This document shows positions 6,736-30,431 of a stretch of DNA of 64,000 bases, in pieces (position 1 is the stretch's first letter; each line of letters opens with the position of its first letter). The notes beneath the pieces are model-generated. The model ran no database searches. It saw only the letters and a program-made list of their open reading frames with translations, and had not been told where the DNA came from. The stretch lies in the NCBI GenBank assembly GCA_050949565.1, contig JBMNFY010000017.1, forward strand, positions 544,001 through 608,000, given 5' to 3'. Both the position numbers and the translations under genes were made by a program. Source of the stretch: Kiritimatiellia bacterium (GTDB lineage Bacteria > Verrucomicrobiota > Kiritimatiellia > RFP12 > UBA1067).

Positions 6736-6755
6736 TTTGAATGAGGACGCTTTCC

Positions 6756-7766
6756 ATGTCTAAGACACTCGCACTTCTGCACACCCAGGCCGACGGCTCA
6801 CTGCCCAAGGCCGCCCTTGAAACCCTCACCGCCGCCGTTGCGCTGGGCCAACCCTTCGACGTGGCGATCCTCGGCACCGGCGCGTCAGCCGCAGCCGACG
6901 CCATTCAGGGCTGCGGCGCGGCCACGTTCTACACGGTCGACGATCCGGCAGTCGCGCAGCCGCGCTATGCCACAGACACCGCCGCCGCCGTCGCATTGAT
7001 CCAGGCCGCCGGGGCTGAACTCGTGCTGGCGCCTGGGACCTCGCGATTCTCGCGCTGTCTGCCCGGTGCCGCGCACCGCGTCGACGCGCAGATCGATACC
7101 CACATCGTGGCGTTGAAGGCTGAAGGCGACACCCTGCGTGCCCAGCGTTGGTTCTACCGCCAGCGCATCCTCGGCACCTTCAGCCGCGCGGCACGCCCCT
7201 GGCTGTTGCTGCTCGACTCCGGTGTGTTCGCTCCCTGGCAGGGGGCGGCCGGCAAGGCCGACGCGCAGGCCGTAGCCGTCACCTTTGCTGAAGACGACCA
7301 GCGCACCACCGTAACCGGCGTGCAGAAGCCGGTTGCCGACGCGCAGACGATCCGGCCGGATGCGAAGCTGCTCTTCGTGGCGGGCGCGGGCTGGACCAAG
7401 AAGCAAAAAGACGGCCAGTTCCACATTGGCGATGCCAGCACACTGATCCTCGACTTCCTCGGCAAGACGCAAGCCTCGCTCGGCAGCAGCAAATCACTGG
7501 TGGACATTCAGGGCGAGGGCCAGGAGACCTTGAGTTTCATGTCGCACATGAACCAAGTGGGACAGACTGGCTCGACGCCGCGCCACCCCAAAGGCCTCGC
7601 AACCTGCTGCCACGGCGAAGAGCCGCACGCGGTCGGCTGGCGCTTCATCAACGAGCGCCGCGCAGTCAACTTGGATCCGAACTGCGGTTGGGCGCAGGGC
7701 AAAGCCGACGTGCTCTACGTGGCCGACGCCTTCGAAGTGATGGCCAAAGTCAACGCGTTGCTCTAA
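6756..7766 (+). CDS. etfA: Electron transfer flavoprotein alpha subunit
   Basis: AKLLFVAGAG, LGSSKSLVD, QVGQTG, AVNLDPN..ADVLYVADAFEV; alternative start at 6741. Confidence 0.85.
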   Translation: MSKTLALLHTQADGSLPKAALETLTAAVALGQPFDVAILGTGASAAADAIQGCGAATFYTVDDPAVAQPRYATDTAAAVALIQAAGAELVLAPGTSRFSRCLPGAAHRVDAQIDTHIVALKAEGDTLRAQRWFYRQRILGTFSRAARPWLLLLDSGVFAPWQGAAGKADAQAVAVTFAEDDQRTTVTGVQKPVADAQTIRPDAKLLFVAGAGWTKKQKDGQFHIGDASTLILDFLGKTQASLGSSKSLVDIQGEGQETLSFMSHMNQVGQTGSTPRHPKGLATCCHGEEPHAVGWRFINERRAVNLDPNCGWAQGKADVLYVADAFEVMAKVNALL

Positions 7767-7820: not shown

Positions 7821-7864
7821 AACGGCTCTTCTTTCATTTTCACGTGTTTAAACTCCTTTCCCTG

Positions 7865-7905
7865 TTGACAGCCTTCAGCCGAGCGTGATATAAAAACCGG
7901 TATAC
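7865..7905 (+). promoter_or_regulatory. Sigma70 promoter with overlapping candidate operator AAAACCGGTATAC (copy 1)
   Basis: TTGACA-N18-TATAAA with TG extension; near-identical copy at 11526..11565. Confidence 0.7.
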
Positions 7906-7952
7906 AGCTTTTAATAACCTGTGTTTTACCAGTATGGCGAAAGGAGTCAGGC

Positions 7953-8218
7953 ATGCATGCTCAAGGACGGAGTTCGCGGTTCGCTATTTCGATCAGGACG
8001 GGAGCGGTCATCGGGCCGCCCCTTCTCACGGGGAGTATGCGACCCTTGTATTCTGCTGCATGTTCGTTATCCACTCTCGTGCCGAAACCGTGGCCTTGTG
8101 GAAGCTAGATTATGAGGCCGGTGATAGTGTCTTGAACGCGCGTTGCCTACTGAACCCGGCGCACGATTTGTTACCTTCGGGTTCCTTATGCGCTCCAGAG
8201 GGAGCCTCACACGACTAA
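7953..8218 (+). pseudogene. Decayed paralog of the 5' end of the LamG gene at 11614
   Basis: MHAQGRSSRFAISIRTGAVIG matches MHAQGRSSRFAVSIKTGAVIG, then loses frame. Another frame gives AETVALWKLD, like the TVAYWRLD domain starts of the LamG protein. Confidence 0.7.
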
Positions 8219-8236
8219 AAACCAGGGAGACACACA

Positions 8237-8662
8237 ATGAAAACCTGCCAGACTAAGAAATGCGCTTGGATGCGTACTCCGCTCATGGTCGTTTCGGTTA
8301 CGTATACAAGTATGGCTCTCGCCCTAGCCTATAACGATGTCACCGCGTGGTGGCATTTCGATTGTGATGCCGATCAGAATGAGCGAGCGGATATGTCAGA
8401 AATCCGTGACCAACGCGATTGGGGCACATCAGCGTTAAAGGGGGCGTCAGGGTATCACGCCACCTCTGTTAACGGTGGTTTGGGGGTGCCCTCATGGACA
8501 AACGAAGTCGTGAGTCCGGCGGGAGGTGCTTTGTATGGAGGGTTTGATCGCTTGTCTCAGTTGGTTGGGCAAACCCATTTTAACCTAGTATCCGCGGTGA
8601 TCACGCCCGGTAAGTGGTATGAGGCAAAGGCAGCAAAGGGGGAAACATGGACAGAAGGGTGA
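8237..8662 (+). pseudogene. Truncated secreted LamG-like protein
   Basis: Signal peptide followed by DVTAWWHFD (LamG-type domain start); only 141 aa. Confidence 0.45.
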
Positions 8663-10880: not shown

Positions 10881-11048
10881 GATGAATTGCGTAAGGCGTA
10901 CGATACGATGCACGCGCACATTTCTTGGAGTATGGCGGACGCGCTGACGGCGTTTGATGCCGCGACCGCCGCTGCGACTCGGAAAGGTCGTGCGCCCAGC
11001 GATCCGGTGCATGACGCGTTCGCGCAGATCACGGCCCGCTTCACGTGA
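10881..11048 (+). pseudogene. Internally deleted 3' fragment of a paralog of the GntR gene at 24646..25404
   Basis: Translates DELRKAYDTMHA|HISWSMADALTAFDAATAAATRKGRAPSDPVHDAFAQITARFT*, matching two segments of the GntR that lie 95 codons apart. Confidence 0.9.
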
Positions 11049-11054
11049 TGGCTC

Positions 11055-11510
11055 AAACCATGAAACACATGAAACTTCATGAAAGGTTGAGGGCATGAAA
11101 GAAAAGATCACGGCGGTCTATGAAGAGGAGTGCTATCAGATACGCGGGGCCTTGTATGACGTGTACACGGTGCTCGGAACTGGTTTCTCGGAAGAGGTCT
11201 ACCAAGAGGCGCTGGAGAAAGAATTTGCCATGCGCCATATCCCTTTTGTGTCACAGCAAGTCCTGCGATTTCATACAAAGGGGAATGGCTTGCAAAGACC
11301 TACAAAGCAGATCTGGTCTGTTACGACAAAATCATTCTCGAATTGAAAGCTGTCAAAGCCCTGCTTTCCGAGCACGAGGCGCAACTCATCAATTACCTTA
11401 AAGCAACCGGAATGCGTCTGGGCTTTCTCGTCAACTTTTGTCATTTTCCCAAGGCAGAGATACGCACATATGTAAACTAATTTCATGAAGTTTCATGTGT
11501 TTCATGGTTT
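11055..11510. mobile_element. CATGAA-IR element 1 carrying a frameshifted GxxExxY gene
   Basis: Perfect 30-bp inverted repeats at 11055..11084 and 11481..11510 enclose only the RBS and ORF. Confidence 0.75.
11095..11480 (+). pseudogene. GxxExxY protein (PD-(D/E)XK-like), 1-nt frameshift near 11266
   Basis: GFSEEVY motif; CTGCGATTT here versus CTGCGGATTT in the intact copy at 21123. May be a sequencing error. Confidence 0.85.
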
Positions 11511-11525
11511 AAACTCCTTTCCCTG

Positions 11526-11565
11526 TTGACAGCCGCCAGCCGAACGTGATATAAAACCGGTATAC
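11526..11565 (+). promoter_or_regulatory. Sigma70 promoter with candidate operator AAAACCGGTATAC (copy 2)
   Basis: TTGACA 11526, TATAAA 11550; lies immediately after the right IR. Confidence 0.7.
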
Positions 11566-11613
11566 AGCTTTTATTAACCTGTGTTTTAACCGGTGTGGCA
11601 AGAGGAGTTAGGT

Positions 11614-14600
11614 ATGCATGCTCAAGGACGGAGTTCACGGTTTGCTGTTTCAATCAAGACGGGGGCGGTCATTGGGCTGTTCCTCCTTATGGGCGCACAT
11701 GGTGCACGTGCCGCCGACGCAGTGCTCAGTTTCAGTGCCAGTGGCCAGCGGGTTGTCACCACCGGCCAGATCACGGCCAATGACTTCACAGCGGAGGCGT
11801 GGTTCAAGCTATCCAGCTACATCTCTGAAAACCAGATCTTTTCGCAATACCGCGACGATGCCGGTCGCTTTATTGTCGGTATCAAGGACAAGGTCGCGGG
11901 CATGTTCATCGGCGGCACCTGGATGACGGGCAGCGGTACGATCCCGCTCAATACTTGGACTCACATTGCTGTCTCGCGTAGCAACACGACCTGGACCATC
12001 TACATCAACGGCCAGTTCTATACGAACGGCGTCCATAACGCGAATCCTCTCGCCAACACAACGTTTGCAATCGGCGCGATCGGCACCACGGCACCGGGCT
12101 TCCGGGGAGAGATCAGCGATGTGCGTGCCTGGAATACGGTCCGCTCTCAAGCGCAGATCGCTGGCGGGTTGGACACGCGCCTTACCGGCACTGAGGCAGG
12201 ACTTGCGCACTACTGGCCGCTGAATGAGGGCTTAGGTAGTACGGTCGCGGATCTTGCTGCTGGAGCCTCAGGAACGCTCGGTGCCGGTGTTGCTTGGGCC
12301 GTTAGTACCGATCTGCCGTTCTCGACGGCGCGACAGGACGGCACCGTTGCCTACTGGCGGCTGGACGCAGATGCGTCCGGTACGTTGGACACGCGCGACT
12401 TTATCGGCAACGCCCGCTTGTCGAGCGGTCTCGATATAACCGCGCACACAACAACCATGCAGGCCAGCCGCAATCAGGCGTTCAGCGGCCAACCGCCGAA
12501 CAGCACGCTGCCCCTGCCGAACGGTAACTCCGGTTCGGCGTACGCGCAGGCCAACGGTGCCTGTCTGCGCGTCACCGATCTGGGACGCCACTTGGAAATC
12601 ACCAACAGCTTTACGGTCGAGGGTTGGATCGCTCCGCACCGGCAAGATTATGATACAGACATCCAGTACATCGCTAATACGCGTGTTTTCACCAAGGGAT
12701 GGGCCTTCGCGCTCAAACGCATGTCGGACGGCACGCGCAGGCTCGTCATCTACGCTGGGGATGACAGTGGCGTTCAAGTTGGCGACGCATCGCTCTCCGG
12801 CGACCTGGCGGCGTGGGCGGACACCTGGCGGCATGTGGCGCTGGTCTATGATGCAAATGCGGGCGAACAGGCGCAGGGTGCCTGGCGGTGCTATCTGGAT
12901 GGCGAGCTGCAGGGCGCGGCCACCAATCAACAGGCGCGTGTCGGCACCACTGCCTCCGAGTATTTCCATTTGGCCGGCCGCATTGGCGGCCACCCCGCTA
13001 CTTTCTGCGGTTATCTGGATTGTTGGCGTGTGAGCCAGGCCGCGCTCGTACCCGAGCAGTTTCTCAACGCGACCGACGGCGCGGTCGCCGCGACCGACGT
13101 GCTGGCGCTATGGCCGCTGAATTCAACGGACGGGGTCTACTTCGATGGTTCGGACGTGACCGGCAACTGGTCGTTCGGCACACCGTTGACAGCCTTGCAC
13201 AAGGCCACAGGCAGCACATCGCAGGCGGTAACCCCGCTTCCCAATCCGGATGCGTCGGCCGCATTTCGCGGTGATCCCGCCGTCAATACTGGCAGTCTGG
13301 TGTTCAACACACCGGCGGCAGCAGCCAAGCGCGCGTATCTCGCCTCCGACAATTATACCGTGCGCGACACGCTCTGTTACACCAACAGCTTTACACTGGA
13401 GGGGTGGTTCTATCGGACACTGAATCCGGGCGGCTGGCAACTTCTCTTTGCGACGGGCGGGGCACCGGTGTTCAGCAATCCGATCGTCGGCCTGTCACTC
13501 AATTTCACCTACCGGACCAACGGTTACGTGCTCTTCGCGGGTGGTGGGTGGCCGGGGACGCTCGTGAGCGATGTGTCGTTCGGCACTGGGTCGATTGATA
13601 ACGAACTGAACGTCTGGCGGCATGTTGCGTTGGTCTACGACGTGACCGTCGGCAAGGGGACCTGGTCGCTCTATGTGGACGGCACGCTCAAAGGCAGCAT
13701 CGAAAACAACACAGTGCCGACCCGTTCCGTACCGGCTTACTTCTATATCGGCGGGCGCCCGTGGTCGGACAACGCGTTCAACGGCGCGATCGATACCGTG
13801 CGCCTGACGCGCGGCGTGCTCGCGCCGTCGCAGTTCCTCAATGCTGCAGGCGCACCGCCGCCCGCTCCGCCCGCGCCCGCGACGGTCGCCTATTGGAAGC
13901 TGGATGACGACGGCGCCGCGCTCGATGCCTCCAGCCAGGTGGAGCCGCGCTACGGCTTCGCGCTGGATGCGTACGCGCCTCGCCGCTTCGGCGGCGCAGT
14001 TCAAGCGCTTCGTCCCGGTGCCGGACACGACGCCCGGCTTCATCGGCGAACCCGCGCGCCAACGCCGGTTCGGCGGCTTTTGACAGTGCCAATTATTTGC
14101 GTGTGCAGAGTCTTGGCATCCGAGTCGAAATGGATTGCGCTTTTACGGTCGAGGGCTGGATGTTCTGGAGCAACCGGGCCGCCCGTGCGGTGCAAACGAT
14201 CGCGGGAACGCGCTTCGACGCGACGTACGGCTGGAGGCTGTCGCTTGAAAAGAACGGCGACGCGGCGGCGTTCCGGCTCTTCTGTCGTACGCCGAATCAG
14301 ACGCCGCTGATTGATGCCACTTTCGCTTTTGATGCCGCTGGACTAGCCGACGCGTGGCACCATCTGGCGCTGACCTTTACGCCCCGCCGCAATGATACCG
14401 GCACATGGGAACTCTTCGTTGACGGGGTCTCGGTCGGTACGCTTGAAAACATCTTCTATCCCGCCGTGCCTCACCGGAGCCACTGGTTTGCGCTGGGTGG
14501 GCAGGCCGATGGCACCGATTCGTCGTTCGACGGACTGCTCGACTGCTGGCGCGTCTCGGAGGGTGCGCGGACGCCCGACACCTTCCTGTATTTGGGGTAT

Positions 14601-14630
14601 GACAAAGGGACACTGCTGAAGATCCGCTGA
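11614..14630 (+). pseudogene. Large secreted multi-LamG (concanavalin A-like) protein with two apparent frameshifts (~13978, ~14050)
   Basis: Repeated FT(V/A/L)E(G/A)W...WRHVALVYD...WxLY(V/L)DG...FxGxxDxxR units continue across ORFs 11593..14310, 13841..14083 and 14097..14630. Ends GTLLKIR*. Confidence 0.8.
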
Positions 14631-14636
14631 TGAGGG

Positions 14637-15063
14637 AACCATGAAACACATGAAACTTCATGAAAGTTTTTTTGAGGGCATTGCTCGGGTTTGTTTAACC
14701 ACAGAGAACACAGAGAGCACAGAGTTTTTTGAGGGGGCGGGGCTGGCCGCAAATTTATTGCGACCACCTAGTGGTCGCAATGATGAGTGTAAAAGCACTG
14801 CTCGGTTGTTTCACGCGAAGGCGCGAAGACGCGAAGGTTGGAGGGCGAGTGTCCCCACGAGCCGCCTTCCGCTGAGCGGAAGGATGGGAGGGACGAGCGT
14901 CGCTCGTCCGCGGGCAAGCAGACGCTTGCCCCTCCCTGCGCTTCGCAAGCCAGATGACACGAGATGGAGGGCGGCATCTGGGTGGCGCACAAAATTGAAT
15001 TGGGGTGCGGGCTCCGCTAAAAAGGAGTTCTTGATTTCATGAAGTTTCATGTGTTTCATGGTT
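14637..15063. mobile_element. CATGAA-IR element 2 (427 bp, non-coding, packed with repeat modules)
   Basis: 29-bp IRs at 14637..14665 and 15035..15063; about 5 substitutions versus 16273..16699. Confidence 0.8.
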
Positions 15064-15120
15064 AAAAAAGTCCTCCCTCTAATCGGGATTGGAACGAAAA
15101 ATGTGACGAAAGGATATGTG

Positions 15121-16272
15121 ATGAAAAAAACACTTGTTGTTTCGACTGTTAGCCTCTTGTTTGCTGCGGCTGCTTTCTGCCAGCCGCCTAAGGCCCCGCC
15201 ACCGGAGCATGCCGGTCCGCCGCTGCCGCGTCATGCAGTCACCAACCGCGCTTTCACTGGCATCTCCAGCCTGGCGGTCGCACCCAACGGTCGGCTCTGG
15301 GTAACCTGGTATGCCGGCCACACGCCGGGCGAGGACCGCAATAACTATGTGGTGCTCGCTACCAGCGGTGATGGTGGCGCGACTTGGAAGGAACTGCTCA
15401 CTGTGGACCCCGACGGCGGGGGGCAACGTCGCACCTTCGATCCCGAAGTGTGGATTGCGCCGGATGGTCGGCTACGCTGGATATGGAGCGACCGTACCAT
15501 GCCGCACAGCGGTGTGTCGTCCGACGCGATCTGGATGATCGTGCTCGACGATCCCGCGTCGGAAAGCACTGCATGGCACCCGCCGGTATATGTCACGCAG
15601 GGCGTGATGATGTGCAAGCCCATCGTGCTCTCTTCAGGCGAGTGGGCGCTGCCGGTCTGTACGTGGTATTCGGAGAACAGTTCGAAAATGGTGGTCTCCA
15701 CTGACAACGGCAAGACGTGGTCGGTGCGCGGCGGCGCGAACATGCCTAGGGAAGACCGCTGTTTTGACGAGCACATGTTTGTGGAACGCAAGGACGGCTC
15801 GATCTGGTGTCTGTCGCGCGCCAAATCCGGCATCCGCGAGGCGGTCTCGACCGACCGTGGCGCAACATGGTCGCCGCTGGAGCCGTCGCCGATCCAGCAC
15901 CCGTCGGCACGCTTCTTCATCACGCGGCTGCTCTCCGGCAACCTGCTGCTTGTGAAGCACGGTCCGATTGAAAGGAAGACCGGTCGTTCGCATCTCATGG
16001 CCTTTGTGTCGAAGGACGATGGCCGGAGATGGGAGGGCGGCCTGATGCTCGATGAGCGGAACGGTGTCTCCTATCCCGACGGCCAGCAGGCGGCGGACGG
16101 CACGATCTACATCACATACGATTTTGACCGTATCGGCAAACGCCATATCCTCTTCTCCACCTTCCGCGAGGAGGACGTGCTGGCCGGCAAGCCGGTTTCC
16201 GGCGCGGTACGTCTGCGCCAGATCGTGAGCGAGGGATCGGGTGGTGTCAAACGGTCTGAGGCCGCTAAATGA
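15121..16272 (+). CDS. Secreted sialidase-family (BNR/Asp-box) protein
   Basis: Asp boxes SGDGGATW, STDNGKTW, STDRGATW, SKDDGRRW; VSYPD; signal peptide from ATG 15121. Confidence 0.88.
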   Translation: MKKTLVVSTVSLLFAAAAFCQPPKAPPPEHAGPPLPRHAVTNRAFTGISSLAVAPNGRLWVTWYAGHTPGEDRNNYVVLATSGDGGATWKELLTVDPDGGGQRRTFDPEVWIAPDGRLRWIWSDRTMPHSGVSSDAIWMIVLDDPASESTAWHPPVYVTQGVMMCKPIVLSSGEWALPVCTWYSENSSKMVVSTDNGKTWSVRGGANMPREDRCFDEHMFVERKDGSIWCLSRAKSGIREAVSTDRGATWSPLEPSPIQHPSARFFITRLLSGNLLLVKHGPIERKTGRSHLMAFVSKDDGRRWEGGLMLDERNGVSYPDGQQAADGTIYITYDFDRIGKRHILFSTFREEDVLAGKPVSGAVRLRQIVSEGSGGVKRSEAAK

Positions 16273-16699
16273 AACCATGAAACACATGAAACTTCATGAA
16301 AGTTTTTTTGAGGGCATTGCTCGGGTTTGTTTAACCACAGAGAACACAGAGAGCACAGAGTTTTTTGAGGGGGCGGGGCTGGCCGCAAATTTATTGCGAC
16401 CACCCAGTGGTCGCAATGATGAGTGTAAAAGCACTGCTCGGTTGTTTCACGCGAAGGCGCGAAGGCGCGAAGGTTGGAGGGCGAGTGTCCCCACGAGCCG
16501 CCTTCCGCTGCGCGGAAGGATGGGAGGGACGAGCGTCGCTCGTCCGCAGGCAAGCAGACGCTTGCCCCTCCCAGCGCTTCGCAAGCCAGATGACACGAGA
16601 TGGAGGGCGGCATCTGGGTGGCGCACAAAATTGAATTGGGGTGCGGGCTCCGCTAAAAAGGAGTTCTTGATTTCATGAAGTTTCATGTGTTTCATGGTT
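16273..16699. mobile_element. CATGAA-IR element 3 (427 bp direct duplicate of element 2)
   Basis: Begins at the base after the sialidase stop; same length and content as 14637..15063. Confidence 0.8.
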
Positions 16700-16710
16700 T
16701 AAGGAGAGGA

Positions 16711-18504
16711 ATGATGAGAGAGTTGATGATAGTCGCGACCGTAACGATCACACTGTGCGGGCTGGTACCGCTTCACGCGCGCGCTAACGCGCCGCTTGTC
16801 TCCTGCGCGTTGTTGAGCGGGCCGGGCGCGGCGCTTGAGAAGATCACCGGTGTGCATCCCGGCGTTATCGAAGAGGGGGCCACCGTGTTCACCGACCGCG
16901 CCTTCGTCTACCATCGGCCGCCCGCTGGCCTCAAGGGTATGCCTGCGTTGGTGGGATCGATCGATTGCGACGTGCCGGTCACCGTGTCCAAAGACGGCCT
17001 GCTCACCGTGCTCACGCCAGCACCGGACATCAAGGGCGCGTTCTGCTCAAATGCCCCCGAATTGGAAGCGCGCGGCTTCACATGGGTTCAGTCTCCGGCG
17101 CAGTTCCAATTGTTCGGAGAGAATCCTGTCGACACCGTGCGCATTTATCAGAAAGCCGTCACGCGCGGCGAGTCGTTCACCTTTAAGAAATGGGTCGTGC
17201 TGGCGGGTGTCGATTTCGCAGGCCAAGATTTCTTCACGCCGAACGCACGGGTGGCGCGTGTGGTCGAGGCGCTGAAGGCCGACACGACCCGTCTGGACGC
17301 AAAGCTAAACGCGCAGGACATTCTGGTCAACCGTCCCGACTATGTGGTGTTCATTCCCCGGCAGCCGCGCGACAAGACAAAGCGCGATCCCGCTCGGCCT
17401 GGCGACACCTACAACGACCACTTTCAGGTGATCGAGCACGAGGGCATGCTGTACGCCTTCTGGACGCAAGCCTCGCGCGAGGCGGATATTGACCAGCACA
17501 TCGCTTTCTCAAAAAGCGCGGACAAAGGCGAGAGCTGGAGCGAGCCCGTGGTTCTGGCCGGTTCGCCCAACAAGAAAAACCCGGCGCTGTTGGCGAGTTG
17601 GCAACAACCAATGATCAGCGCGTCGGGCCGTATCTACTGCCTGTGGAATCAACAAACCACCAGCCGCGGGCCGCACTGTGGCCAGATGTTCGGCGCGTAT
17701 TCTGATGACAAGGGAGACACATGGTCGGCACCGAAAATGATACCGCTGAAGCGCAGCATTCTGGATGATCCCGATCCATTGATACCACCGAGCTGGTGCA
17801 ACTGGCAGCGCCCGTTGCGTCTGGGCAAAGGGGGGCGTTACCTGGTGGGCGTCTCGCGGCACGGTAAACTGCCGGACGCCAAACGGGGCGGATGCTATAT
17901 TGAGTTCTTGCAGTTTGACAACATCGACGACAATCCCAAGGTCGAGGACATCCGGCTGAGCTGGTTTTCGAGCGACGAGAAGGTACTGCGCGTCAGCCAC
18001 GAAAAATTCGGCGATGCTGCAGAGGAGGTCGGTCTCGTTAAGCTGCCGGACGGTCGTCTTTTCGGCATCATGCGCACCGGCGCGGGGTACCCCTACTGGA
18101 CGCAGAGCCGTGATAACGGCGTGACCTGGACGCAGCCCCGGCCGCTCCTGGATCGCGACGGCGGCAAGCCCTATCTGCACCCGCGCTCGCCCTGTCCGAT
18201 CTACGACTGGAAGGGGTGCGAGGCCGCCAGCGGCTACTACTTTGCCCTTGTCCACAACACCTTCGACTTTGACGGCAAAAGCGAGTATCAGCATCGCGGC
18301 CCGCTCTATCTGATCGCGGGCCGGTTTAACCCAAACGCCGAGCAGCCGGTCGAGTTTGCGCCGCCGAAACTTTTCGCCGAGCGCAAGGGCGGCAACTCGT
18401 TCTACACGAGCTATACGATCATGGACGGCAAAGGCATCCTCTGGTTCCCCGACCACAAGTTTTATCTGCTCGGACGTGAGATCGGGGAGGAGTGGTTTAA
18501 GTAG
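16711..18504 (+). CDS. Secreted sialidase-like (Asp-box) protein with an N-terminal accessory module
   Basis: RBS AGGAGAGG then ATG 16711; Asp boxes SADKGESW, SDDKGDTW, SRDNGVTW. Confidence 0.82.
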   Translation: MMRELMIVATVTITLCGLVPLHARANAPLVSCALLSGPGAALEKITGVHPGVIEEGATVFTDRAFVYHRPPAGLKGMPALVGSIDCDVPVTVSKDGLLTVLTPAPDIKGAFCSNAPELEARGFTWVQSPAQFQLFGENPVDTVRIYQKAVTRGESFTFKKWVVLAGVDFAGQDFFTPNARVARVVEALKADTTRLDAKLNAQDILVNRPDYVVFIPRQPRDKTKRDPARPGDTYNDHFQVIEHEGMLYAFWTQASREADIDQHIAFSKSADKGESWSEPVVLAGSPNKKNPALLASWQQPMISASGRIYCLWNQQTTSRGPHCGQMFGAYSDDKGDTWSAPKMIPLKRSILDDPDPLIPPSWCNWQRPLRLGKGGRYLVGVSRHGKLPDAKRGGCYIEFLQFDNIDDNPKVEDIRLSWFSSDEKVLRVSHEKFGDAAEEVGLVKLPDGRLFGIMRTGAGYPYWTQSRDNGVTWTQPRPLLDRDGGKPYLHPRSPCPIYDWKGCEAASGYYFALVHNTFDFDGKSEYQHRGPLYLIAGRFNPNAEQPVEFAPPKLFAERKGGNSFYTSYTIMDGKGILWFPDHKFYLLGREIGEEWFK

Positions 18505-18538
18505 AGCTTAGAAAGGTGGACAGCGCGGTTGGAATGAG

Positions 18539-18738
18539 ACCATGAAACACATGAAACTTCATGAAAGGTGGGGCATGGTTAGTGTATTGGTGCGTTAGTT
18601 CATCAGTGCATTAATTTGGTTCCATCGGAATCGGGATCGGGACCGAAATCGATAGAGAGTGAATAGTGGGGGGCTGTGCGGACACAAACCGCTAAAAAGG
18701 AGTTCTTGATTTCATGAAGTTTCATGTGTTTCATGGTT
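18539..18738. mobile_element. CATGAA-IR element 4 (200 bp, different internal modules)
   Basis: IRs at 18539..18566 and 18710..18738. Interior has TTAGTGC-like and ATCGGG-like repeats and shares the CCGCTAAAAAGGAGTTCTTGA tail with elements 2 and 3. Confidence 0.8.
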
Positions 18739-18766
18739 TAGAACGGTATGAAAAAGGAGAGGAAAG

Positions 18767-20899
18767 ATGAGAGGGATGATGATAATCGCGGCCATAACGA
18801 TCATGCTGTGCGGGTTGGCACCGCTTCATGCACAGCCGCGCGATACGCCCTTGCCGGGACGCGGTGCCGCACTCTTCGTGCAAGGGATTTTTGAGCAGGA
18901 TACGTTTACCGAAGGTGCGCGACTCTTCCCGGACCGCACTTACACAGTGGCTGAAGCGCCCGCTTGGTTGCGCGGGTCGACCTTCCTGCGCGCAAGCATT
19001 GATGGCAACCTTACCGTGACGGTCAAGCAAGCCGGTGTGTTGACGGTGATTACGGCCGATCCCGCCGATCCGCTCGCCACGCATTCGCAATGCACGCGTC
19101 TGGAGGAACTGGGGTTTGTCTGGGTCAAGGCACCGGCGACCTTTCAGCTTTTCGGCAAAGCGGCTCACGACATCAGCCGCACTTATCAGAAACTGGTCGC
19201 GCAGGACGAAACGTTCAACTTTCCCAAGTGGACGGTGTTCGCCGGTTTCTCCGAGGTGACCGGGCCGCCGCTGCCGTTCGACCTTCTGCCAGAGCGCGGC
19301 GAGCGACTTTACAACGGCATCGAACTTTCAACCAACTGGCCGCCGCGCACCGTGAACACGACGAACTGGGCGCCGATGGCCGTGCCGTATCTGACCGCGC
19401 CGCCGGAGTTGATCCATATTGATGTGGGGCGGCAACTCTTTGTGGACGACTTCCTGATTGCGACCAGCACGTTGCAGCGCGTCTTCGGTATGCCTGAGAA
19501 GTACACCGGCAACCCGGTGCTGCGTCCAGAGACCGAACTGGAGTTGAACGGCATCCGGAACGCCGCAGCCGTGCCGAAGGGTGGCGGGCTCTGGTGGGAT
19601 CCCTACGAACGGCTGTTCAAGCTCTGGTATGAGGCGGGCTGGATCCACACCATTTGTTACGCCACCAGCACAAACGGTCTGCACTGGGAGCGGCCGAAGT
19701 TGGACGTGGTGCCGGACACCAATCAGGTGCTGCCGCCGGACTTGACACCAGACTCCTGGACCGTGGTGCCCGATTGGGAGGCGACCGATCCGCTGCAGCG
19801 CTATAAAATGTTTATGCGCGGGCCCGGCGGGACAATGCCCGGGGTGAGTATGACTTCGGCGGATGGCATTCACTGGGTGAATCGTGTAGTTACTGGCCAC
19901 ACCGGCGATCGTAGCACCATGTTCTATAATCCATTCCGGCGCAAATGGATCTACAGCCTGCGGAGCGGCTGGCGCGGACGGTCACGCGATTATAGGGAGA
20001 GCGACAACTTCCTGCGCGGTGCTTCTTGGAGCGCGGCGGATACCGTGCGTTGGTTGGCCGTGGATGAGAAGGACCCCAAGGATCCGAAAATCCAGCGGGT
20101 GCCGCAACTCTACAACTTTGACGCGGTAGCCTACGAGAGCATCATGCTGGGTGCATTTGAGATTCACCACGGACCGGAGAACGACGTCTGCATGAAAGTC
20201 GGTTTGCCGAAAATCACGGAGTTGAATTTCGCCTACAGCCGCGACGGGTTCCACTGGTCGCGGCCTGACCGCAGAGCGCACATCCGCGCGGAACGTTGGG
20301 GCAGCGGCAAATGGGATACCGGCTATGTGCAGTCGCTCGGCAATCTTTGCACGATTCAGGGCGACAAGCTCTGGTTCTATTACTCCGGATTTCAAGGCGA
20401 CACCAATCGCCTCAGCGGCGACTGGTTGCAGAACGGCATGTACGACAACGGTGCCATGGGCATCGCCTTCTTGCGGCGCGATGGCTTCGCGGCTATGCGG
20501 GCGGGAGACGGTGGTGGAGAACTCGTCACGCGGCCATTGCTCTTCAGCGGTGCGTGTGTGTTTGTGAATGTGGCGTGTCCACAAGGCGAGTTGCGCGTGG
20601 AGGTGCAGGATGTCGAAAGCGAGACGGCCATTCCGGGTTTTGCGCTGGCCGAGTGCCGCCCCGTCTCCGTCGACAGCACCCTGCACCGCATCACCTGGCA
20701 AGACGCCGACACCGTCAGGGCTTTGCGTGGCCGACCGGTCCGTTTCCGTTTCGCATTGTCCAACGGCGCGCTGTACGCTTTCTGGGTCAGTCGTGATGAA
20801 AGCGGTCGCAGCGACGGCTATGTAGCGGGCGGCGGACCGGGATACACCGGGCCGACTGACACGGTGGGGGCTGCCGCGTTGTTGCAAGATGAACCATGA
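18767..20899 (+). CDS. Secreted five-bladed beta-propeller glycoside hydrolase-like protein (GH32/GH43-clan-like) with the same N-terminal module as 16711
   Basis: GRQLFVDDFLI, CYATSTNGLHWERP, SADGIHW, AYSRDGFHW, LRRDGF; its stop codon lies inside the next IR. Confidence 0.75.
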   Translation: MRGMMIIAAITIMLCGLAPLHAQPRDTPLPGRGAALFVQGIFEQDTFTEGARLFPDRTYTVAEAPAWLRGSTFLRASIDGNLTVTVKQAGVLTVITADPADPLATHSQCTRLEELGFVWVKAPATFQLFGKAAHDISRTYQKLVAQDETFNFPKWTVFAGFSEVTGPPLPFDLLPERGERLYNGIELSTNWPPRTVNTTNWAPMAVPYLTAPPELIHIDVGRQLFVDDFLIATSTLQRVFGMPEKYTGNPVLRPETELELNGIRNAAAVPKGGGLWWDPYERLFKLWYEAGWIHTICYATSTNGLHWERPKLDVVPDTNQVLPPDLTPDSWTVVPDWEATDPLQRYKMFMRGPGGTMPGVSMTSADGIHWVNRVVTGHTGDRSTMFYNPFRRKWIYSLRSGWRGRSRDYRESDNFLRGASWSAADTVRWLAVDEKDPKDPKIQRVPQLYNFDAVAYESIMLGAFEIHHGPENDVCMKVGLPKITELNFAYSRDGFHWSRPDRRAHIRAERWGSGKWDTGYVQSLGNLCTIQGDKLWFYYSGFQGDTNRLSGDWLQNGMYDNGAMGIAFLRRDGFAAMRAGDGGGELVTRPLLFSGACVFVNVACPQGELRVEVQDVESETAIPGFALAECRPVSVDSTLHRITWQDADTVRALRGRPVRFRFALSNGALYAFWVSRDESGRSDGYVAGGGPGYTGPTDTVGAAALLQDEP

Positions 20900-21112
20900 A
20901 ACACATGAAACTTCATGAAAAGGCGGGGTGTGGTTAGGGAACCATGAAACACATGAAACTTCATGAAAAGGCGGGGTGTGGTTAGGGAACCATGAAACAC
21001 ATGAAACTTCATGAAAAGGCGGGGTGTGGTTAGGGAACCATGAAACACATGAAACTTCATGAAAAGGCGGGGTGTGGTTAGGGAACCATGAAACACATGA
21101 AACTTCATGAAA
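20892..21112 (+). repeat. Tandem array: five left IRs separated by an identical 19-bp spacer (48-bp period)
   Basis: Units start at 20892, 20940, 20988, 21036 and 21084; spacer AGGCGGGGTGTGGTTAGGG. Confidence 0.95.
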
Positions 21113-21538
21113 GGTGAGGGGTATGAAAGAAAAGAGCGTGATGGTTTATGAAGAGGAGTGTTATCAAATACGCGGGGCCTTGTATGAGGTATATACGGTG
21201 CTCGGGACTGGTTTCTCGGAAGAGGTTTACCAAGAGGCACTGGAGAGAGAGTTTGCTGTGCGCCATATCCCGTTTGTATCACAGCAAGTCCTGCGGATTT
21301 CATACAAAGGAGAATGGCTCTCAAAGACCTACAAAGCAGATCTGGTCTGTTACGACAAAATCATTCTCGAATTGAAGGCTGTCAAAACCCTGCTTCCTGA
21401 GCACGAGGCGCAACTCCTCAATTACCTTAAAGCAACCGGAATGCGTCTAGGTTTTCTCGTCAACTTTTGTTGTTTTCCCAAGGCGGACATACGCACGTAT
21501 GTAAACTAATTTCATGAAGTTTCATGTGTTTCATGGTT
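21084..21538. mobile_element. CATGAA-IR element 5 carrying an intact GxxExxY gene
   Basis: Left IR 21084..21112; right IR 21510..21538 starts directly after the stop codon. Confidence 0.78.
21123..21509 (+). CDS. GxxExxY protein (PD-(D/E)XK nuclease-like)
   Basis: LGTGFSEEVYQEAL, ADLVCYDKIILELKAV, HEAQLLNYLKATGMRLGFLVNF; 128 aa. Confidence 0.93.
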   Translation: MKEKSVMVYEEECYQIRGALYEVYTVLGTGFSEEVYQEALEREFAVRHIPFVSQQVLRISYKGEWLSKTYKADLVCYDKIILELKAVKTLLPEHEAQLLNYLKATGMRLGFLVNFCCFPKADIRTYVN

Positions 21539-21545
21539 GAAAAGT

Positions 21546-22796
21546 ATGAAAAAAATTAAACAACTCCTTTCGGTTCTTGGTCCCGGCATCTTTGCGATCG
21601 GTTACACGATCGGCACCGGCAGCGTCACCTCGATGGCGAAGGCCGGCAGTCAGTACGGACTGCAACTGCTCTGGGTGCTCTTCCTGATCTGTCTGTTTTC
21701 AGGTGTGCTGATGGAGGCGTACGGACGCATGGCGGCGGTGACCGGTGGCACCTCGTTGCACGCCGTGAAGCGTCATCTGCCGTTCGGCCGCACGCTGGCC
21801 ATCCTGATTCTGATCGGCGTGGCGACGGCGCAGTACACCTGTCTGGGCGGAATCTTGACGCTATCGTCCGGCGCGATCTACGAGACGCTCGCCCTTTACG
21901 TTCCCTCCTTGCCAAAGGAGAACTACGCTGCGACACTGGGCATCGCCGTGGTGCTGATCGCGTTGATGTACAGCCTGCTCATGATCGGACGCTACAGCTT
22001 CTTTGAGAAAGTGCTGGCTTTCTTTGTGATGATCATGGGAATCACCTTCTTGATCTCAATGTTCGTGGTCTGGCCGTCGCCGGAAATCCTCAAACAGGCG
22101 CTGATCCCATCAATCCCCGATGAGCCGGGCGCACTGCTGATGATTGCGGCCTTTGTGGGTACCACGATGGCGGCGCCCACATTCGTCACCCGACCGTTAC
22201 TGCTGAAAGAGAAGGGGGTGGGCGTAGCTGACCTCAAGGAACAAACGCTCGATTCCGTAGTCTCCGCGTCGCTGATGTTTTTGATCAGCGGCTCGATCAT
22301 GGTTGTCGCGGCCGGCGCGCTCTACGCGCACGGCAAGGAGATCGTCAAGATCCTCGACATGGTTCACACGCTCGAGCCGCTAGCTGGCCGATTCGCGGTC
22401 GCGCTGTTCATGACGGGGACGCTGAGCGCCGGTCTCTCTTCGATCTTCCCGATCTTGATGGTCGCCCCGCTGCTGATCTCCGACTATCGCGTGGGGCACA
22501 TGGAGCCGCGCAGCAAGACCTTCCGGGTGCTCTGTCTGGTGGCGGCGTGTGCAGGCTTGATCGTGCCGGCGCTGGGTGGCCGCAATCCGGTGGCGGTTAC
22601 GATCATGGCACAGATCTCCAATGTTTTTGTGTTGCCGCTGACTGTCGCCGTGATCTTGGTGCTGGTGAACCGGCGCGATCTGATGGGAGAGCACCGCGCC
22701 GGTCCGTTGCTGAACATCGGCTTGGCGCTGGCCGGTCTTTTCGCGTGCATCATCGCCGTGACCGGCCTGCGCGCGCTACTTGATGCATGGTTTTGA
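21546..22796 (+). CDS. Nramp-like (APC superfamily) membrane transporter
   Basis: LGPGIFAIGYTIGTGSVT, GLQLLW, AAFVGTTMA; about 11 TM segments; lacks the canonical DPGN. Confidence 0.82.
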   Translation: MKKIKQLLSVLGPGIFAIGYTIGTGSVTSMAKAGSQYGLQLLWVLFLICLFSGVLMEAYGRMAAVTGGTSLHAVKRHLPFGRTLAILILIGVATAQYTCLGGILTLSSGAIYETLALYVPSLPKENYAATLGIAVVLIALMYSLLMIGRYSFFEKVLAFFVMIMGITFLISMFVVWPSPEILKQALIPSIPDEPGALLMIAAFVGTTMAAPTFVTRPLLLKEKGVGVADLKEQTLDSVVSASLMFLISGSIMVVAAGALYAHGKEIVKILDMVHTLEPLAGRFAVALFMTGTLSAGLSSIFPILMVAPLLISDYRVGHMEPRSKTFRVLCLVAACAGLIVPALGGRNPVAVTIMAQISNVFVLPLTVAVILVLVNRRDLMGEHRAGPLLNIGLALAGLFACIIAVTGLRALLDAWF

Positions 22797-22811
22797 CCGG
22801 AAAGGTGTCGT

Positions 22812-23462
22812 ATGAAAGAGGACATTGAGAAGTTGGTACGCGAGTCGCGCATCATTGCGATCATCCGTGGTTTTAAGCCAGACATCTGCCTGAAGCTTGC
22901 TGATGCCTATGCGAGGGGTGGTATCCGGATGGTTGAAGTCACGTTCAACCAAGCGTCCCCCGAGACGTGGGCGGATACTGTCGCAGCGATTCGGGTGATC
23001 CGCGAACATTTTTTCGGAGATATCCGGGTCGGCGCGGGCACGGTTCTCACTGAAGAGCAACTGACGATGATGGAGGATGCGGGCGGCGAGTATATGGTCA
23101 CGCCGAATGTCAATCCGTCTCTCATCCGCGAGTGCGTCCGTCGCGGGTGCGCCGCGATGCCCGGGGCGCTCACGCCGAGTGAGGCTGTCGACGCTTGGGA
23201 GGCGGGCGCGAGTTTCGTGAAAATCTTCCCGGCGGGTTCACTCGGTGCAGGCTACGTCGAGGCATTAAGCACGCCGTTGTCGCATATTCCGTTTCTCGCG
23301 GTTGGCGGGGTGGGGCCTGACAATGTCAGAGACTTTATGGCGGCTGGCTGCGCTGGCGCGGGTGTCGGCGGGAACCTCACGAACAAAGAGTGGATTGCCG
23401 CAGGCGAGTGGGACAAGATTGCCGCCGTTGCTAAAACTCTGATCGACAATTCCCGTATCTAA
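22812..23462 (+). CDS. eda: KDPG/KHG aldolase
   Basis: IIAIIRG, VEVTF, VGAGTVLT, PGALTPSE, VKIFPA, LAVGGV. Confidence 0.92.
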   Translation: MKEDIEKLVRESRIIAIIRGFKPDICLKLADAYARGGIRMVEVTFNQASPETWADTVAAIRVIREHFFGDIRVGAGTVLTEEQLTMMEDAGGEYMVTPNVNPSLIRECVRRGCAAMPGALTPSEAVDAWEAGASFVKIFPAGSLGAGYVEALSTPLSHIPFLAVGGVGPDNVRDFMAAGCAGAGVGGNLTNKEWIAAGEWDKIAAVAKTLIDNSRI

Positions 23463-23492
23463 ATCAATCCTTCAACAAAGGAGAACCAGACA

Positions 23493-24518
23493 ATGAAAAT
23501 CGTTACTTTTGGCGAAATCATGATGCGCCTTAATCCAGAGGGTTACCGTCGGTTCACGCAAGCGGACAAGTTTGAGGTGAGTTATGCGGGCGGCGAGGTG
23601 AACGTTGCCGTGTCGCTTGCGAACTACGGCATGGAGGTGTCCTTCGTGACGAAACTCCCTGAGAATCCGCTGGGCGAGGCGGCACGGAATGCCGTGCGCC
23701 ATTTCGGCGTTGAAACGAAGGATATCGTCTGGGGCGGCCCTCGGCTCGGCACCTATTTTGTGGAAAAGGGGGCTTCGCAGCGTGCGTCGAAGGTCGTTTA
23801 TGATCGCGCCGGATCATCGATTGCGCTCGCGAAACGCACGGACTTCGATTGGGCGAAAATCCTGCGGGGCGTAAAATGGTTTCACTTTACCGGCATCACG
23901 CCCGCGCTTGGTGGCGAGTTACCTGCGATCTGTCTGGATGCGCTTGAGTATTGCAAGGCGCACAAGATTACGGTTTCCTGCGACCTCAATTATCGCGGCA
24001 AGCTTTGGACCAGGGCTGAGGCTAAAGCATGCATGGCGAAGCTCGTTCCGTATGTCGATGTCCTCATTGCAAACGAGGCGGACGCGGCGGATGTTTTTGG
24101 GATCGTCGGCAAGGGCACCGATGTCGAGGGCGGAAAACTCGACAAGGCGGGGTATGTCTCTGTCGCCGAGCAGTTGGTGGAGCGTTTTGGCGTGAAGAAA
24201 GTGGCGATCACGCTCCGCACTTCGCTTTCCGCCTCTGACAACCTATGGGCGGGTGTGCTTTACGACGCAAAGACGAGAGAGCCCGTGTTTTCGACAGAAT
24301 ACAAACTCCACATCGTCGACCGCGTCGGCGGCGGGGACAGCTTTGGCGGGGGACTCATCTATGCGCTTGTTACGGGCAAGAACCCGCAGGCGGCGATTGA
24401 TTTCGCAGTTGCGGCAAGCGCCCTTAAACACTCAATCGAGCACGACTTCAATCTTGTTTCCGTCAAAGAAGTGGAGGCACTGGCCGCAGGCGGCGGAACA
24501 GGACGCATTCAGCGGTAA
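23493..24518 (+). CDS. kdgK: 2-dehydro-3-deoxygluconokinase (PfkB family)
   Basis: FGEIMMRL, GGEVNVAVSLA, DLNYRGKLW, IVDRVGGGDSF. Confidence 0.92.
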   Translation: MKIVTFGEIMMRLNPEGYRRFTQADKFEVSYAGGEVNVAVSLANYGMEVSFVTKLPENPLGEAARNAVRHFGVETKDIVWGGPRLGTYFVEKGASQRASKVVYDRAGSSIALAKRTDFDWAKILRGVKWFHFTGITPALGGELPAICLDALEYCKAHKITVSCDLNYRGKLWTRAEAKACMAKLVPYVDVLIANEADAADVFGIVGKGTDVEGGKLDKAGYVSVAEQLVERFGVKKVAITLRTSLSASDNLWAGVLYDAKTREPVFSTEYKLHIVDRVGGGDSFGGGLIYALVTGKNPQAAIDFAVAASALKHSIEHDFNLVSVKEVEALAAGGGTGRIQR

Positions 24519-24565
24519 GAGGGCGTGATACGCGGCACCTTTTTTAGACGTGAAGCTTCATGTAT

Positions 24566-24610
24566 GCCGTGACCAGCCTGCGCGCTCTGCTTGTCGCATG
24601 GTTGGGTTAG
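24566..24610 (+). pseudogene. 3'-terminal remnant of an Nramp-like paralog
   Basis: GCCGTGACCAGCCTGCGCGCTCTGCTTGTCGCATGGTT (AVTSLRALLVAW) resembles 22755..22796 (AVTGLRALLDAWF). Confidence 0.7.
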
Positions 24611-24619
24611 GTCTCTCCT

Positions 24620-24637
24620 AACCATGAAACACATGGT
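24620..24637. repeat. Collapsed CATGAA-IR site (candidate empty site or footprint)
   Basis: AACCATGAAACACATGGT is the outer part of one IR fused at CATG to the outer end of the other. Confidence 0.7.
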
Positions 24638-24645
24638 ATGAGCTA

Positions 24646-25404
24646 TCACGTGAAGCGGGCCGTGATCTGCGCGAGCGCGTCATGTACCGGATCGCTGGGT
24701 GCGCGGCCGCTCCGAGTCGCGGCGGCGGTCGCGGCATCAAACGCCGTCAGCGCGTCCGCCATACTCCAAGAAATGTGCGCGTGCATCCAGCGAGCCGCAG
24801 CGCTCGGGTCGCCGCGCCGTATCGCACGCTCGACCTCGGCATGCTGACGCCACGCCCAGGCAACGTGGCGCAAGTCGCGCTTGTGGCTGTACTGGCCGAA
24901 GAAGAGATTACGCTGGTAGACGTTGGTTACGATCTTGATGGCCAAGTGGTTGCCGGCCGCTTTGAGCAACAGCAAATGGAACGAGAGGTCTGCCGTGAGA
25001 AATGTAACCAGCGGTCGGCCCTCCAGCAGCGGACGACGCCGCGTACGCAGACTGACAGCCATCGCATGCATCGTCTCGCACGCCTTGCGCAATTCATCGC
25101 GGTTGGCTTTGGTGAGGTTCCGCACCGCACGTTCCATGGCGAAGGTCTCAAGTGCCATCCGCACTTCAAAGGCATCGATGAGCTGACGCCGGTCCGGCCG
25201 CGCGACATACGTGCCGCTGGACGGGATCTGATAGAGCAGCCCCTCCTCCGTCAGCCGACGCACCGCCTCGCGCACCGGCGTACGGCTAATCCCGCACTCG
25301 GCAGCAATCGTCTGCTCGGAGAGCTTTTGCCCTGCCACCAGTTCGCCACTCACCAATTTCTTGCTGATGTGCCGATAGGCGACATCACTCAACGTTTCAC
25401 CCAC
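24646..25404 (-). CDS. GntR family regulator (FCD/FadR-type)
   Basis: LSEQTIAAECGISRTPVREAVRRL HTH; ADLSFH...AGN...QHAEV C-terminal domain. Confidence 0.93.
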   Translation of the reverse strand: MGETLSDVAYRHISKKLVSGELVAGQKLSEQTIAAECGISRTPVREAVRRLTEEGLLYQIPSSGTYVARPDRRQLIDAFEVRMALETFAMERAVRNLTKANRDELRKACETMHAMAVSLRTRRRPLLEGRPLVTFLTADLSFHLLLLKAAGNHLAIKIVTNVYQRNLFFGQYSHKRDLRHVAWAWRQHAEVERAIRRGDPSAAARWMHAHISWSMADALTAFDAATAAATRSGRAPSDPVHDALAQITARFT

Positions 25405-25542
25405 AGTTGCTCCAGCTCCCTCACGATCTTCGCACGTCCTTGCCGCTAATTACATACCGGATGCGTCAAAACGAATACCGGTTTTGCAATACGGTATCAA
25501 GTTAGGGCGGACTTGTCAGCAACCGATCACAGACACAACCGA

Positions 25543-29909: not shown

Positions 29910-30431
29910 CTGAAAGAGCGTTGAAAGTTGAAAGTGTAATCGGTTAGTGACAAGGAGGGTGCGAAGGTCATGAGTTTCTGGTGAAAAGGGGAGCAGAGAG
30001 TCGGGCGCGGGCGTCCTCGCCCGCAACAACGTGTCTTGCAAAAGATTGATGCGCAGATTCCCTCGTTGCGGGTTTATTTTTTGACCTGATTGACATAACT
30101 GACCTGATTGACATGATTTGGAGGGCGAGTGTCCCCACGAGCCGCCTTCCGCTATGCGGAAGGATGGTTTCGGGTTTCATTGCGGAGCGCCGAGATGGGC
30201 AAGCGTCTGCTTGCCCGGCGGCGCATGTGCCACCCACTTGAGCGTTGAAAGTTGAGCGTTGAGCGTTGGGCGTTTAATTTTTTGTGCGCGGACGGCGGCT
30301 CGTGAGGACACTCGCCCTCCAGTGCTACGGTCTGGGCTAGCGAAGCACCGTAAAAAATTCCTGCGTCTCTGCGTCTCTGCGTTAAAAAAACTCTCAACGT
30401 TCTGCGGGCGAGGACGCCCGCGCTCCCGACT
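29910..30431. repeat. Composite intergenic REP/BIME-like region with nested inverted repeats
   Basis: Outer pair GCGGGCGTCCTCGCCCGC (~29999..30032 / 30397..30431); inner pair GGAGGGCGAGTGTCCCCACGAGCCG (30120..30144 / 30296..30320); also TTGAGCG, GACCTGATT and CTCTGCGT repeats. Confidence 0.85.

Follow-up and report, generated by a model that had tools for sequence, protein, structure and literature searches.

The short site behind the intact GntR gene of this Kiritimatiellia genome (G000) is probably a decayed GxxExxY hairpin cassette at an inversion joint, its interior lost through a host-made microhomology deletion, and not an empty target. The site, here called J1, lies in a stretch of 64,000 nucleotides, the whole of which was analysed and is referred to as the window (contig JBMNFY010000017.1 of assembly GCA_050949565.1, positions 544,001 to 608,000). 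A first-pass annotation of the window had paired J1 with a filled site behind a second, fragmentary GntR gene and taken the two as the same position with and without the element. It read the short form as a pre-insertion site or excision footprint with crossover at the palindromic CATG, and held the pair to be the best internal evidence that the element moves or excises.

The two sequences are as that annotation gave them. On the forward strand of the window the filled site reads ...CGCTTCACGTGA-TGGCTCA-(AACCATGAAACACATGAAACTTCATGAAA ... TTTCATGAAGTTTCATGTGTTTCATGGTT)-TAAACTCC: the TGA of the GntR pseudogene, TGGCTCA, and then an element with 29-bp inverted arms at 11056-11509, which counts 454 bp and not the 456 bp first given. 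The short site, as the reverse complement of 24620-24648, reads ...CGCTTCACGTGA-TAGCTCA-TACCATG-TGTTTCATGGTT-AGGAGAGACC; 3′ of the intact GntR gene on the minus strand there accordingly stands TGA-TAGCTCA-TACCATG-TGTTTCATGGTT. Alignment confirms that the GntR 3′ ends of the two loci are ~94% identical over 156 nt, the 7-nt spacer and ACCATG included. The outer part of the arm recurs exactly as the 16-mer at 24620-24635, and when up to 3 mismatches are allowed this 16-mer has 17 matches in the window against 0.25 expected. Of the arm facing the Nramp flank J1 keeps 16 nt and of the arm facing GntR 3-7 nt, the two meeting at CATG; its 19-nt remnant can form a 6-bp stem with a 5-nt loop (-5.5 kcal/mol, z = -3.6 against shuffles). 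The short site is a remnant of a filled site, with both outer arm tips kept. Beyond the element there is no homology between the filled (TAAACTCC...) and short (AGGAGAGACC...) loci, and the pair is therefore one-sided. A candidate repeat-family member close by, CATGGTTGGGTTAGG at 24598-24612, resembles the tail of a 48-bp repeat unit; it was rejected, being the 3′ end of the Nramp coding sequence (...AWLG-stop) as judged from G004.

Contigs of the public runs X14, X16 and X20 span J1 without any difference (21600-25500 compared; four runs), and run X19 has no piece that bridges J1, so that bridging contigs come from three of the four runs. No filled or alternative J1 allele was seen in the contigs of these four public runs, in which rare variants are invisible. 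The identical J1 contigs in three runs show only that one widespread strain carries J1. Coordinates of the features are collected in Table 1.

Table 1. Features of the locus, in window coordinates
Feature	Coordinates	Strand	Remarks
ETF-domain gene ('geneY')	6741..7766	+	outer left flank of the inverted segment
J2, decayed motif TTTCAT/TTTCACGTGTT	7832..7848	.	other inversion joint
Right-flank tag TAAACTCC + TTGACA / TATAAAA promoter + ACCGGTATACAGC box	7849..7950	+	directly after GntR in relatives
GntR pseudogene fragment, 5′ truncated, 275-nt internal deletion	10881..11048	+	common to G002:C313:3148-3316
Tag TGGCTCA before element 1	11049..11055	+	
Element 1: perfect 29-bp inverted arms + frameshifted GxxExxY (PDDEXK_3) gene 11095-11480	11056..11509	+	
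Elements 2, 3, 4 + two BNR genes between	14637..18738	+	block edged by inverted arm copies
Element 5: four extra 48-bp arm units, then cassette 21084-21538	20892..21538	+	
Nramp-family transporter gene	21537..22796	+	3′ end is the original neighbour of motif B
KDPG aldolase + PfkB kinase genes	22812..24518	+	between two 38-bp repeat copies; absent here in G004
Duplicated last 45 nt of Nramp gene + 9-nt spacer	24566..24619	+	
J1, two-tip remnant AACCATGAAACACATG+GTA	24620..24638	.	one inversion joint
7-nt tag TAGCTCA (other copies TGGCTCA)	24639..24645	-	goes with the left end of the cassette; in no empty site
Intact GntR/FCD regulator gene	24646..25404	-	PF00392 1.4e-17, PF07729 3.4e-20

A 16.8-kb segment of G000, lying between the ETF gene and GntR, is inverted relative to G004 (95-99% identical) and G001. 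On contig C38 of G004 the ETF gene is followed by CTCTTC, by a solo motif, TTTCATGAAGTTTCATG(-2 nt)TTTCATGGTT, and by AGGAGAGACCTAACCC..., which is the reversed Nramp 3′ end, AGGAGAGACC... standing between the solo motif and Nramp. Nramp converges on the ETF gene in G001 (C549) as it does in G004, and GntR is colinear with the promoter in G001, G002, G004, L117 and G018. The order in G000 is ETF - J2 (TTTCAT TTTCACGTGTT) - TAAACTCC - promoter - operon - Nramp - (aldolase, kinase), after which come a copy of the Nramp 3′ end, J1, TGAGCTA and the reversed GntR gene. Since the right flank of the short site is the Nramp 3′ locus, which has its own solo motif in G004, the short site is an inversion joint, and the notion that the filled and short forms share one position falls away. 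As judged from the aligned gene orders, the two breakpoints are the cassette behind GntR and the solo 29-bp motif behind Nramp. Both J1 and J2 keep the CATGTGTT part of the arm, and hence two motif copies took part. J2 itself corresponds to a 29-nt arm that has lost 4 nt and 8 nt and acquired one substitution, and stands between the ETF flank and the TAAACTCC-promoter.

Around the aldolase and kinase genes, 24566-24603 repeats 22755-22792 as a 38-bp direct repeat of the Nramp 3′ end; the stretch of G004 that matches 24566-24619 is the true Nramp 3′ end, followed by the solo motif (motif B). None of the six other genomes of the genus gave a match to the PfkB kinase. Behind the J2 promoter, 7955-8650 holds what is left of the beginning of a LamG-type gene, a short piece 82% like 11585-11693, which is interrupted by a stop and precedes a beta-helix/GH141-like gene at 8647-10875.

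Relatives of the genus also show what the site looks like when empty. Their GntR gene is followed by a conserved promoter/operator on the same strand (TTTCCCTGTTGACA ... ACCGGTATACAGC) and then by a LamG-type gene. The empty site reads TGA-TGGAAAATTTCC-TTTCCC in G004 (C170) and at site 1 of contig L117, TGA-TGAAAAATTTCC in G002 (C313), where it lies behind the same internally deleted pseudogene as in G000, and TGA-TAAAGATGAC in G001, G003 and G006. Between the stop codon and TTTCCC, G001 has TAAAGATGACCGAT; other DNA follows TAAAGATGAC in G003 and G006. None of five empty sites of relatives holds ACCATG..CATGGT, and none of the five holds the tag TGGCTCA together with TACCATG. TGGCTCA and the right-hand tag TAAACTCC were found only together with the cassette or some part of it. 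The short site is thus not a pre-insertion target. G002 is only 56% and G004 only 78% complete, with contig breaks at the arm repeats. In G003 and G006 (loci L003 and L004; G003:C397 and G006:C90) two short ORFs stand directly after the GntR stop codon and, by eye, read like a HicB/HicA-type toxin-antitoxin pair.

The filled allele from which J1 would derive came from a metagenome scan with the pattern CGTGAT-N(1-6)-GCTCA-N(0-1)-ACCATG, a loose pattern that matched at least 119 contigs, one of which, L117, was relevant among the matches listed; other alleles may have escaped the scan. L117 is 96.6% identical to window 30591-24645 over 5955 nt and carries two tandem GntR genes. It reads GntR#2-TGA-TGGCTCA-TACCATGAAAC...(48-bp unit)(full cassette)...CATGGTT-TAAATTCC-TTTCCCTGTTGACA-promoter; the stop codon of GntR#2 is followed by TGGCTCA-TACCATGAAACACATGAAACTTCATGAAA, a single 48-bp unit and the full cassette, and the promoter side is 96.6% identical to window 7832-8378. 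Position 1 of its arm is T, in agreement with the TACCATG of J1, and its cassette gene has an in-frame TAA. Judged from this alignment, L117 keeps the parent allele of J1. The intact GntR gene of G000, which has the N-terminal GntR winged helix and C-terminal FCD domain of the FCD subfamily, aligns as a hybrid, with a GntR#1-type body up to the stop codon and a GntR#2-type tail, and may have arisen by unequal crossover between two tandem GntR copies.

The same cassette is found in other states nearby. In the GntR fragment before element 1, 10881-10916 matches 25063-25098 and 10907-11062 matches 24632-24787, which marks its internal deletion. G000 and G002 have this pseudogene and its upstream gene in common (95.8% over 3.2 kb); the site behind it is empty in G002 and filled in G000, with both tags of the GntR#2 site, and the final ~40 nt of the G000 pseudogene resemble the intact G000 GntR gene. 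Because element 1 came with both flank tags, it is probably a copy of the filled allele, made by gene conversion between tandem GntR-promoter modules, and not a fresh insertion. Such a conversion would point to an allele that had kept its full length in the G000 lineage until then. G002 retains a 42-bp remnant of the same ancestral cassette, ACCATGAAAC joined to TAATTGCATGAAG...CATGGTT, in which the left arm meets the gene end at AAAC. Deletion endpoints therefore vary. The first-pass annotation had named variable endpoints in relatives as one observation that would speak against its reading, and this AAAC joint is largely that observation.

We propose the following history. One insertion would have placed a GxxExxY hairpin cassette, together with TGGCTCA, between a GntR stop codon and the promoter it faced, the state that L117 shows. 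In the G000 lineage the right arm of the cassette would then have recombined with the inverted solo motif 9 nt behind Nramp and turned 16.8 kb; the inversion is observed, and a homologous crossover of arm against motif is the step that may explain it. The inversion would have left the whole cassette at J1, between Nramp flank and GntR, and a single motif at J2, between ETF gene and promoter. Finally, a deletion from one CATG to another in direct orientation, close to where the 29-bp stem has its base, would have removed the interior at J1, giving AACCATGAAACA-CATG-GTA, and J2 would have lost 4 and 8 nt. The deletion at J1 is probably host-made, by slipped mispairing across the hairpin as in PMC4134008, which combines a model with in vitro work. 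Slippage at hairpins with short flanking direct repeats is an established route. The genomes and contigs examined yielded no intermediate in which a full cassette separates the Nramp flank from GntR.

Several details of the joints agree with this history. A crossover between right arm and solo motif predicts a whole cassette at J1 and one arm at J2; the one arm seen at J2 lacks 4 and 8 nt and differs by one change. If a deletion at J1 then ran from the first CATG in the GntR-side arm to the other arm's second CATG, counted from the outer end, exactly the observed 19 nt would remain. These words occupy positions 4-7 of the GntR-side arm and 13-16 from the outer end of the other arm, so that both endpoints lie no more than 16 nt from the ends of a 29-30 bp stem, and in element 1 and L117 alike the junction falls in a short direct repeat present at both parent endpoints. 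The only palindromic words of the arm are CATG (three times) and TTCATGAA, with core TCATGA, around the third CATG; the only 4-mers common to the inverted arms in direct orientation are CATG and words inside TTCATGAA. As inverted arms share direct words only where these are palindromic, a microhomology deletion between the arms must end in CATG or a TTCATGAA word, and with these as the sole shared microhomology a CATG joint is expected without any enzyme. Independent events used different microhomologies: AAAC in G002, with other small losses at J2 and in copies of G004, which lost 2 nt in motif B and at G004:C77 and 3 nt in the arm of element 5. Several motif copies of G000 are 2- or 9-nt slippage variants.

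The arm belongs to a large repeat family. Its exact outer 11-mer occurs at 164 places in G000, 150 of which match over all 29 nt, and many copies are arrayed in tandem, the period ranging from 48 to 729 bp. Inverted arm pairs around a core number only five in the genome, all within the window (11056-21538), and each of the five elements fills the gap between a stop codon and the next ribosome-binding site. Elements 1 and 5 alone carry a GxxExxY gene. In element 1 a 1-nt indel splits the gene into two ORFs, with PF13366 matches in two different frames (5.2e-21 and 6.7e-11), and the element folds with a 30-bp terminal stem (-80 kcal/mol, z = -5.9). The gene of element 5, at 21123-21509, is the only intact one of the arm type in the genome; its protein matches PF13366 at 8.3e-39 (133 bits, curated cut-off 22). 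The four 48-bp units before element 5 (20892-21083) are perfect, each consisting of the arm and AAGGCGGGGTGTGGTTAGGG, and gene 18767 has its stop codon inside the first.

Elements 2 and 3 have cores (14680-15030 and 16320-16670) that are 99% alike with no gene inside; these cores are pieced together from repeat families found elsewhere in the genome, the AACCACAGAGAACACAGAGAGCACAGAG word and GGAGGGCGAGTGTCCCCACGAGCC hairpins, which recur at 30112, 46454 and 61564. Element 3 takes the place of ~500 nt of the 3′ end of gene 15049. The block 14637-18738, elements 2-4 with the BNR genes, spans 4.1 kb and is missing between the LamG gene and gene 18767 in G001, G003 and G006; there 14 nt separate these two genes, and the two BNR (sialidase-like) genes lie elsewhere. 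The other four GxxExxY genes of the genome (G000:C17:1382786, C17:1746657, C15:17358 and C7:32937) have their own, different triple-word flanks, with AACCACAGAACACACTGAATACACGGAA, AACCACGAATGGACACAAATACACACGAAT, CGCAGAG runs and CGCAAAGA runs as flank repeats and arrays beside the gene too. A literature search found the word GxxExxY in three papers and in no title or abstract; as far as we found, GxxExxY-plus-hairpin cassettes are common and undescribed in the literature.

Other readings of J1 fit parts of this evidence. That ACCATG-N5-CATGGT is the site into which the cassette inserts is hardly credible: the short and filled sites do have a left flank in common, but the word is missing at five homologous empty sites, TGGCTCA-TACCATG is confined to the cassette, the genome has the word once against ~150 full motif copies, and the flanks of elements 2-5 have no such word. 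The pre-insertion site of the first-pass annotation is contradicted by the empty sites of G004, L117, G002, G001, G003 and G006, all without ACCATG..CATGGT. We also consider it very improbable that the 6-bp stem persists because the convergent GntR and kinase genes use it as a terminator or regulator-binding site. The stem does fold more stably than shuffled sequences, but it is weak and is not followed by a T run; a separate GC-rich stem with a T run serves the kinase at 24523-24546, relatives have no hairpin behind GntR, and the sameness of J1 in the contigs of three runs reflects a single strain. An unlikely route is a one-step illegitimate inversion that joined the left arm tip and motif B directly at CATG, in which case J1 never held a cassette and J2 received nearly the whole of it and lost it later. 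Such an event would make a separate deletion at J1 unnecessary, and the inversion itself is shown, but J2 would have to lose ~500 bp and end by chance as a single decayed arm, a product that recombination of 29-bp inverted copies yields directly. Moreover, the presence of the same CATGTGTT arm part at both joints fits two whole copies after homologous crossover.

It is unlikely that J1 records active excision, with the GxxExxY nuclease supplied in trans from the intact element 5, the arms cut at CATG and the tips rejoined as a footprint. The CATG junction with both tips kept suits such a cut, as do the intact PDDEXK_3 gene with the same arms 3 kb away and the three CATGAAAC words of the arm, whose spacing of 9-10 nt resembles a protein-binding array. 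A second G000 motif copy, at C10:272687-272702, is broken after the same second CATG (AACCATGAAACACATG followed directly by TCGCAAAAG...). The DNA joined there has no match in six genus relatives for ~540 nt, and G004:C77 has a whole motif at the orthologous place; that contig ends 197 nt past its motif, and its two sides map to different G000 contigs. No partner half of the C10 copy was found, the only copy cut on its outer side near position 16 (C8:224022) having unrelated flanks. Farther along, the joined DNA is followed by a gene family repeated five times (C10:276-293 kb). Two of the four truncated, outer-anchored motif copies of G000, J1 and C10:272687, end at this one position, which hints at a preferred break and counts against passive decay.

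A footprint of active excision would be expected to recur, yet the motif-derived ACCATG-N5-CATGGT occurs once in G000 despite ~150 full motif copies and five arm-flanked cassettes, and the 17-nt remnant word is unique. Nine CATG fusions are possible, eight of them long enough to test, and only that of J1 occurs, once in G000. Among 60 other family genomes, 12 of them with the motif, none contains the remnant word; one match with 1 mismatch among them is a complete motif with a point change and was set aside. The remnant word is likewise missing from five further genomes, which were searched for copies cut after position 16, and G049, with 60 copies, is among the genomes that have no footprint. 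A genome-wide collection of these sites, which the annotation had proposed, thus yields one motif-derived site and no further CATG-fused site, and footprints do not recur at independent donor sites in G000, the 60 family genomes or the five further ones. Nor do both flanks of J1 come from one locus, only the GntR side being common. The same ancestral cassette was deleted in G002 at AAAC and not at CATG, CATG is the forced microhomology of inverted arms, and a table in PMC3424549 gives the function of PF13366 as 'Unknown'. We accordingly regard the locus as weak evidence for active excision, and with the AAAC deletion and the single CATG-fused site it loses its standing as the best evidence that the element moves or excises. 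What remains of the supposed excision footprint is a filled-site remnant with both tips, as L117 indicates, and with flanks from two loci. We think it improbable that the GxxExxY protein recognises its own triple-word arm as a site-specific nuclease and cuts it just after the second CATG (CATG^AAAC), with J1 and C10:272687 as two repair products of such breaks; what probability this reading keeps comes from the second truncated copy.

A cassette lost passively at an inversion joint, the reading we favour, has parallels in known systems. Transposase-independent excision of Tn10 and Tn5, both 'nearly precise' and precise, was reportedly described by Ross, Swan and Kleckner in 1979 and by Foster et al. 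in 1981. There, as here, the interior between long inverted repeats is lost at short direct repeats in or next to the arms, a small palindromic remnant stays and the enzyme of the element is not needed; the arms here are 29 bp and not of IS length, the microhomology is 4 bp, and only the product is seen. Recombination between inverted repeats such as IS elements and rRNA operons turns the segment between them and leaves hybrid repeat copies at both joints, as in the present inversion, whereas the repeat here is only 29 bp. For RecA-dependent exchange such a length is short, and the inversion may therefore involve a route stimulated by hairpins or breaks.

The layout also recalls REP sequences and REPINs, whose RAYT genes encode Y1 HUH (TnpA-REP) transposases: a short repeat stands in inverted copies on either side of a single small gene, and gene-less copies and tandem clusters occur genome-wide. 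The likeness is one of layout alone, since the gene here has a PD-(D/E)XK fold (PF13366) and matches only PF13366, and the arms consist of triple direct words and not of REP palindromes. Footprints of Tc1/mariner and hAT elements in eukaryotes recur at many loci with a typical structure and unchanged flanks. Like J1, they leave a few terminal nucleotides of both ends at the donor site, but here there is one site, with flanks from two different loci.

This locus shows a cassette in five states within about 4% sequence divergence: an empty site, a full cassette, a conversion-copied full cassette, a 42-bp remnant and a 19-bp remnant. Passive decay is expected to join inverted arms tip to tip at CATG, and this sets a standard for similar claims. 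If the nuclease reading were true, it would provide a first cut site and mechanism for a widespread gene family, and the breaks would also seed inversions, conversions and gene shuffling at the cassettes. The 29-bp motif acted as the crossover point of a 16.8-kb operon inversion, and the order of genes is thus altered by such repeats, mobile or not.
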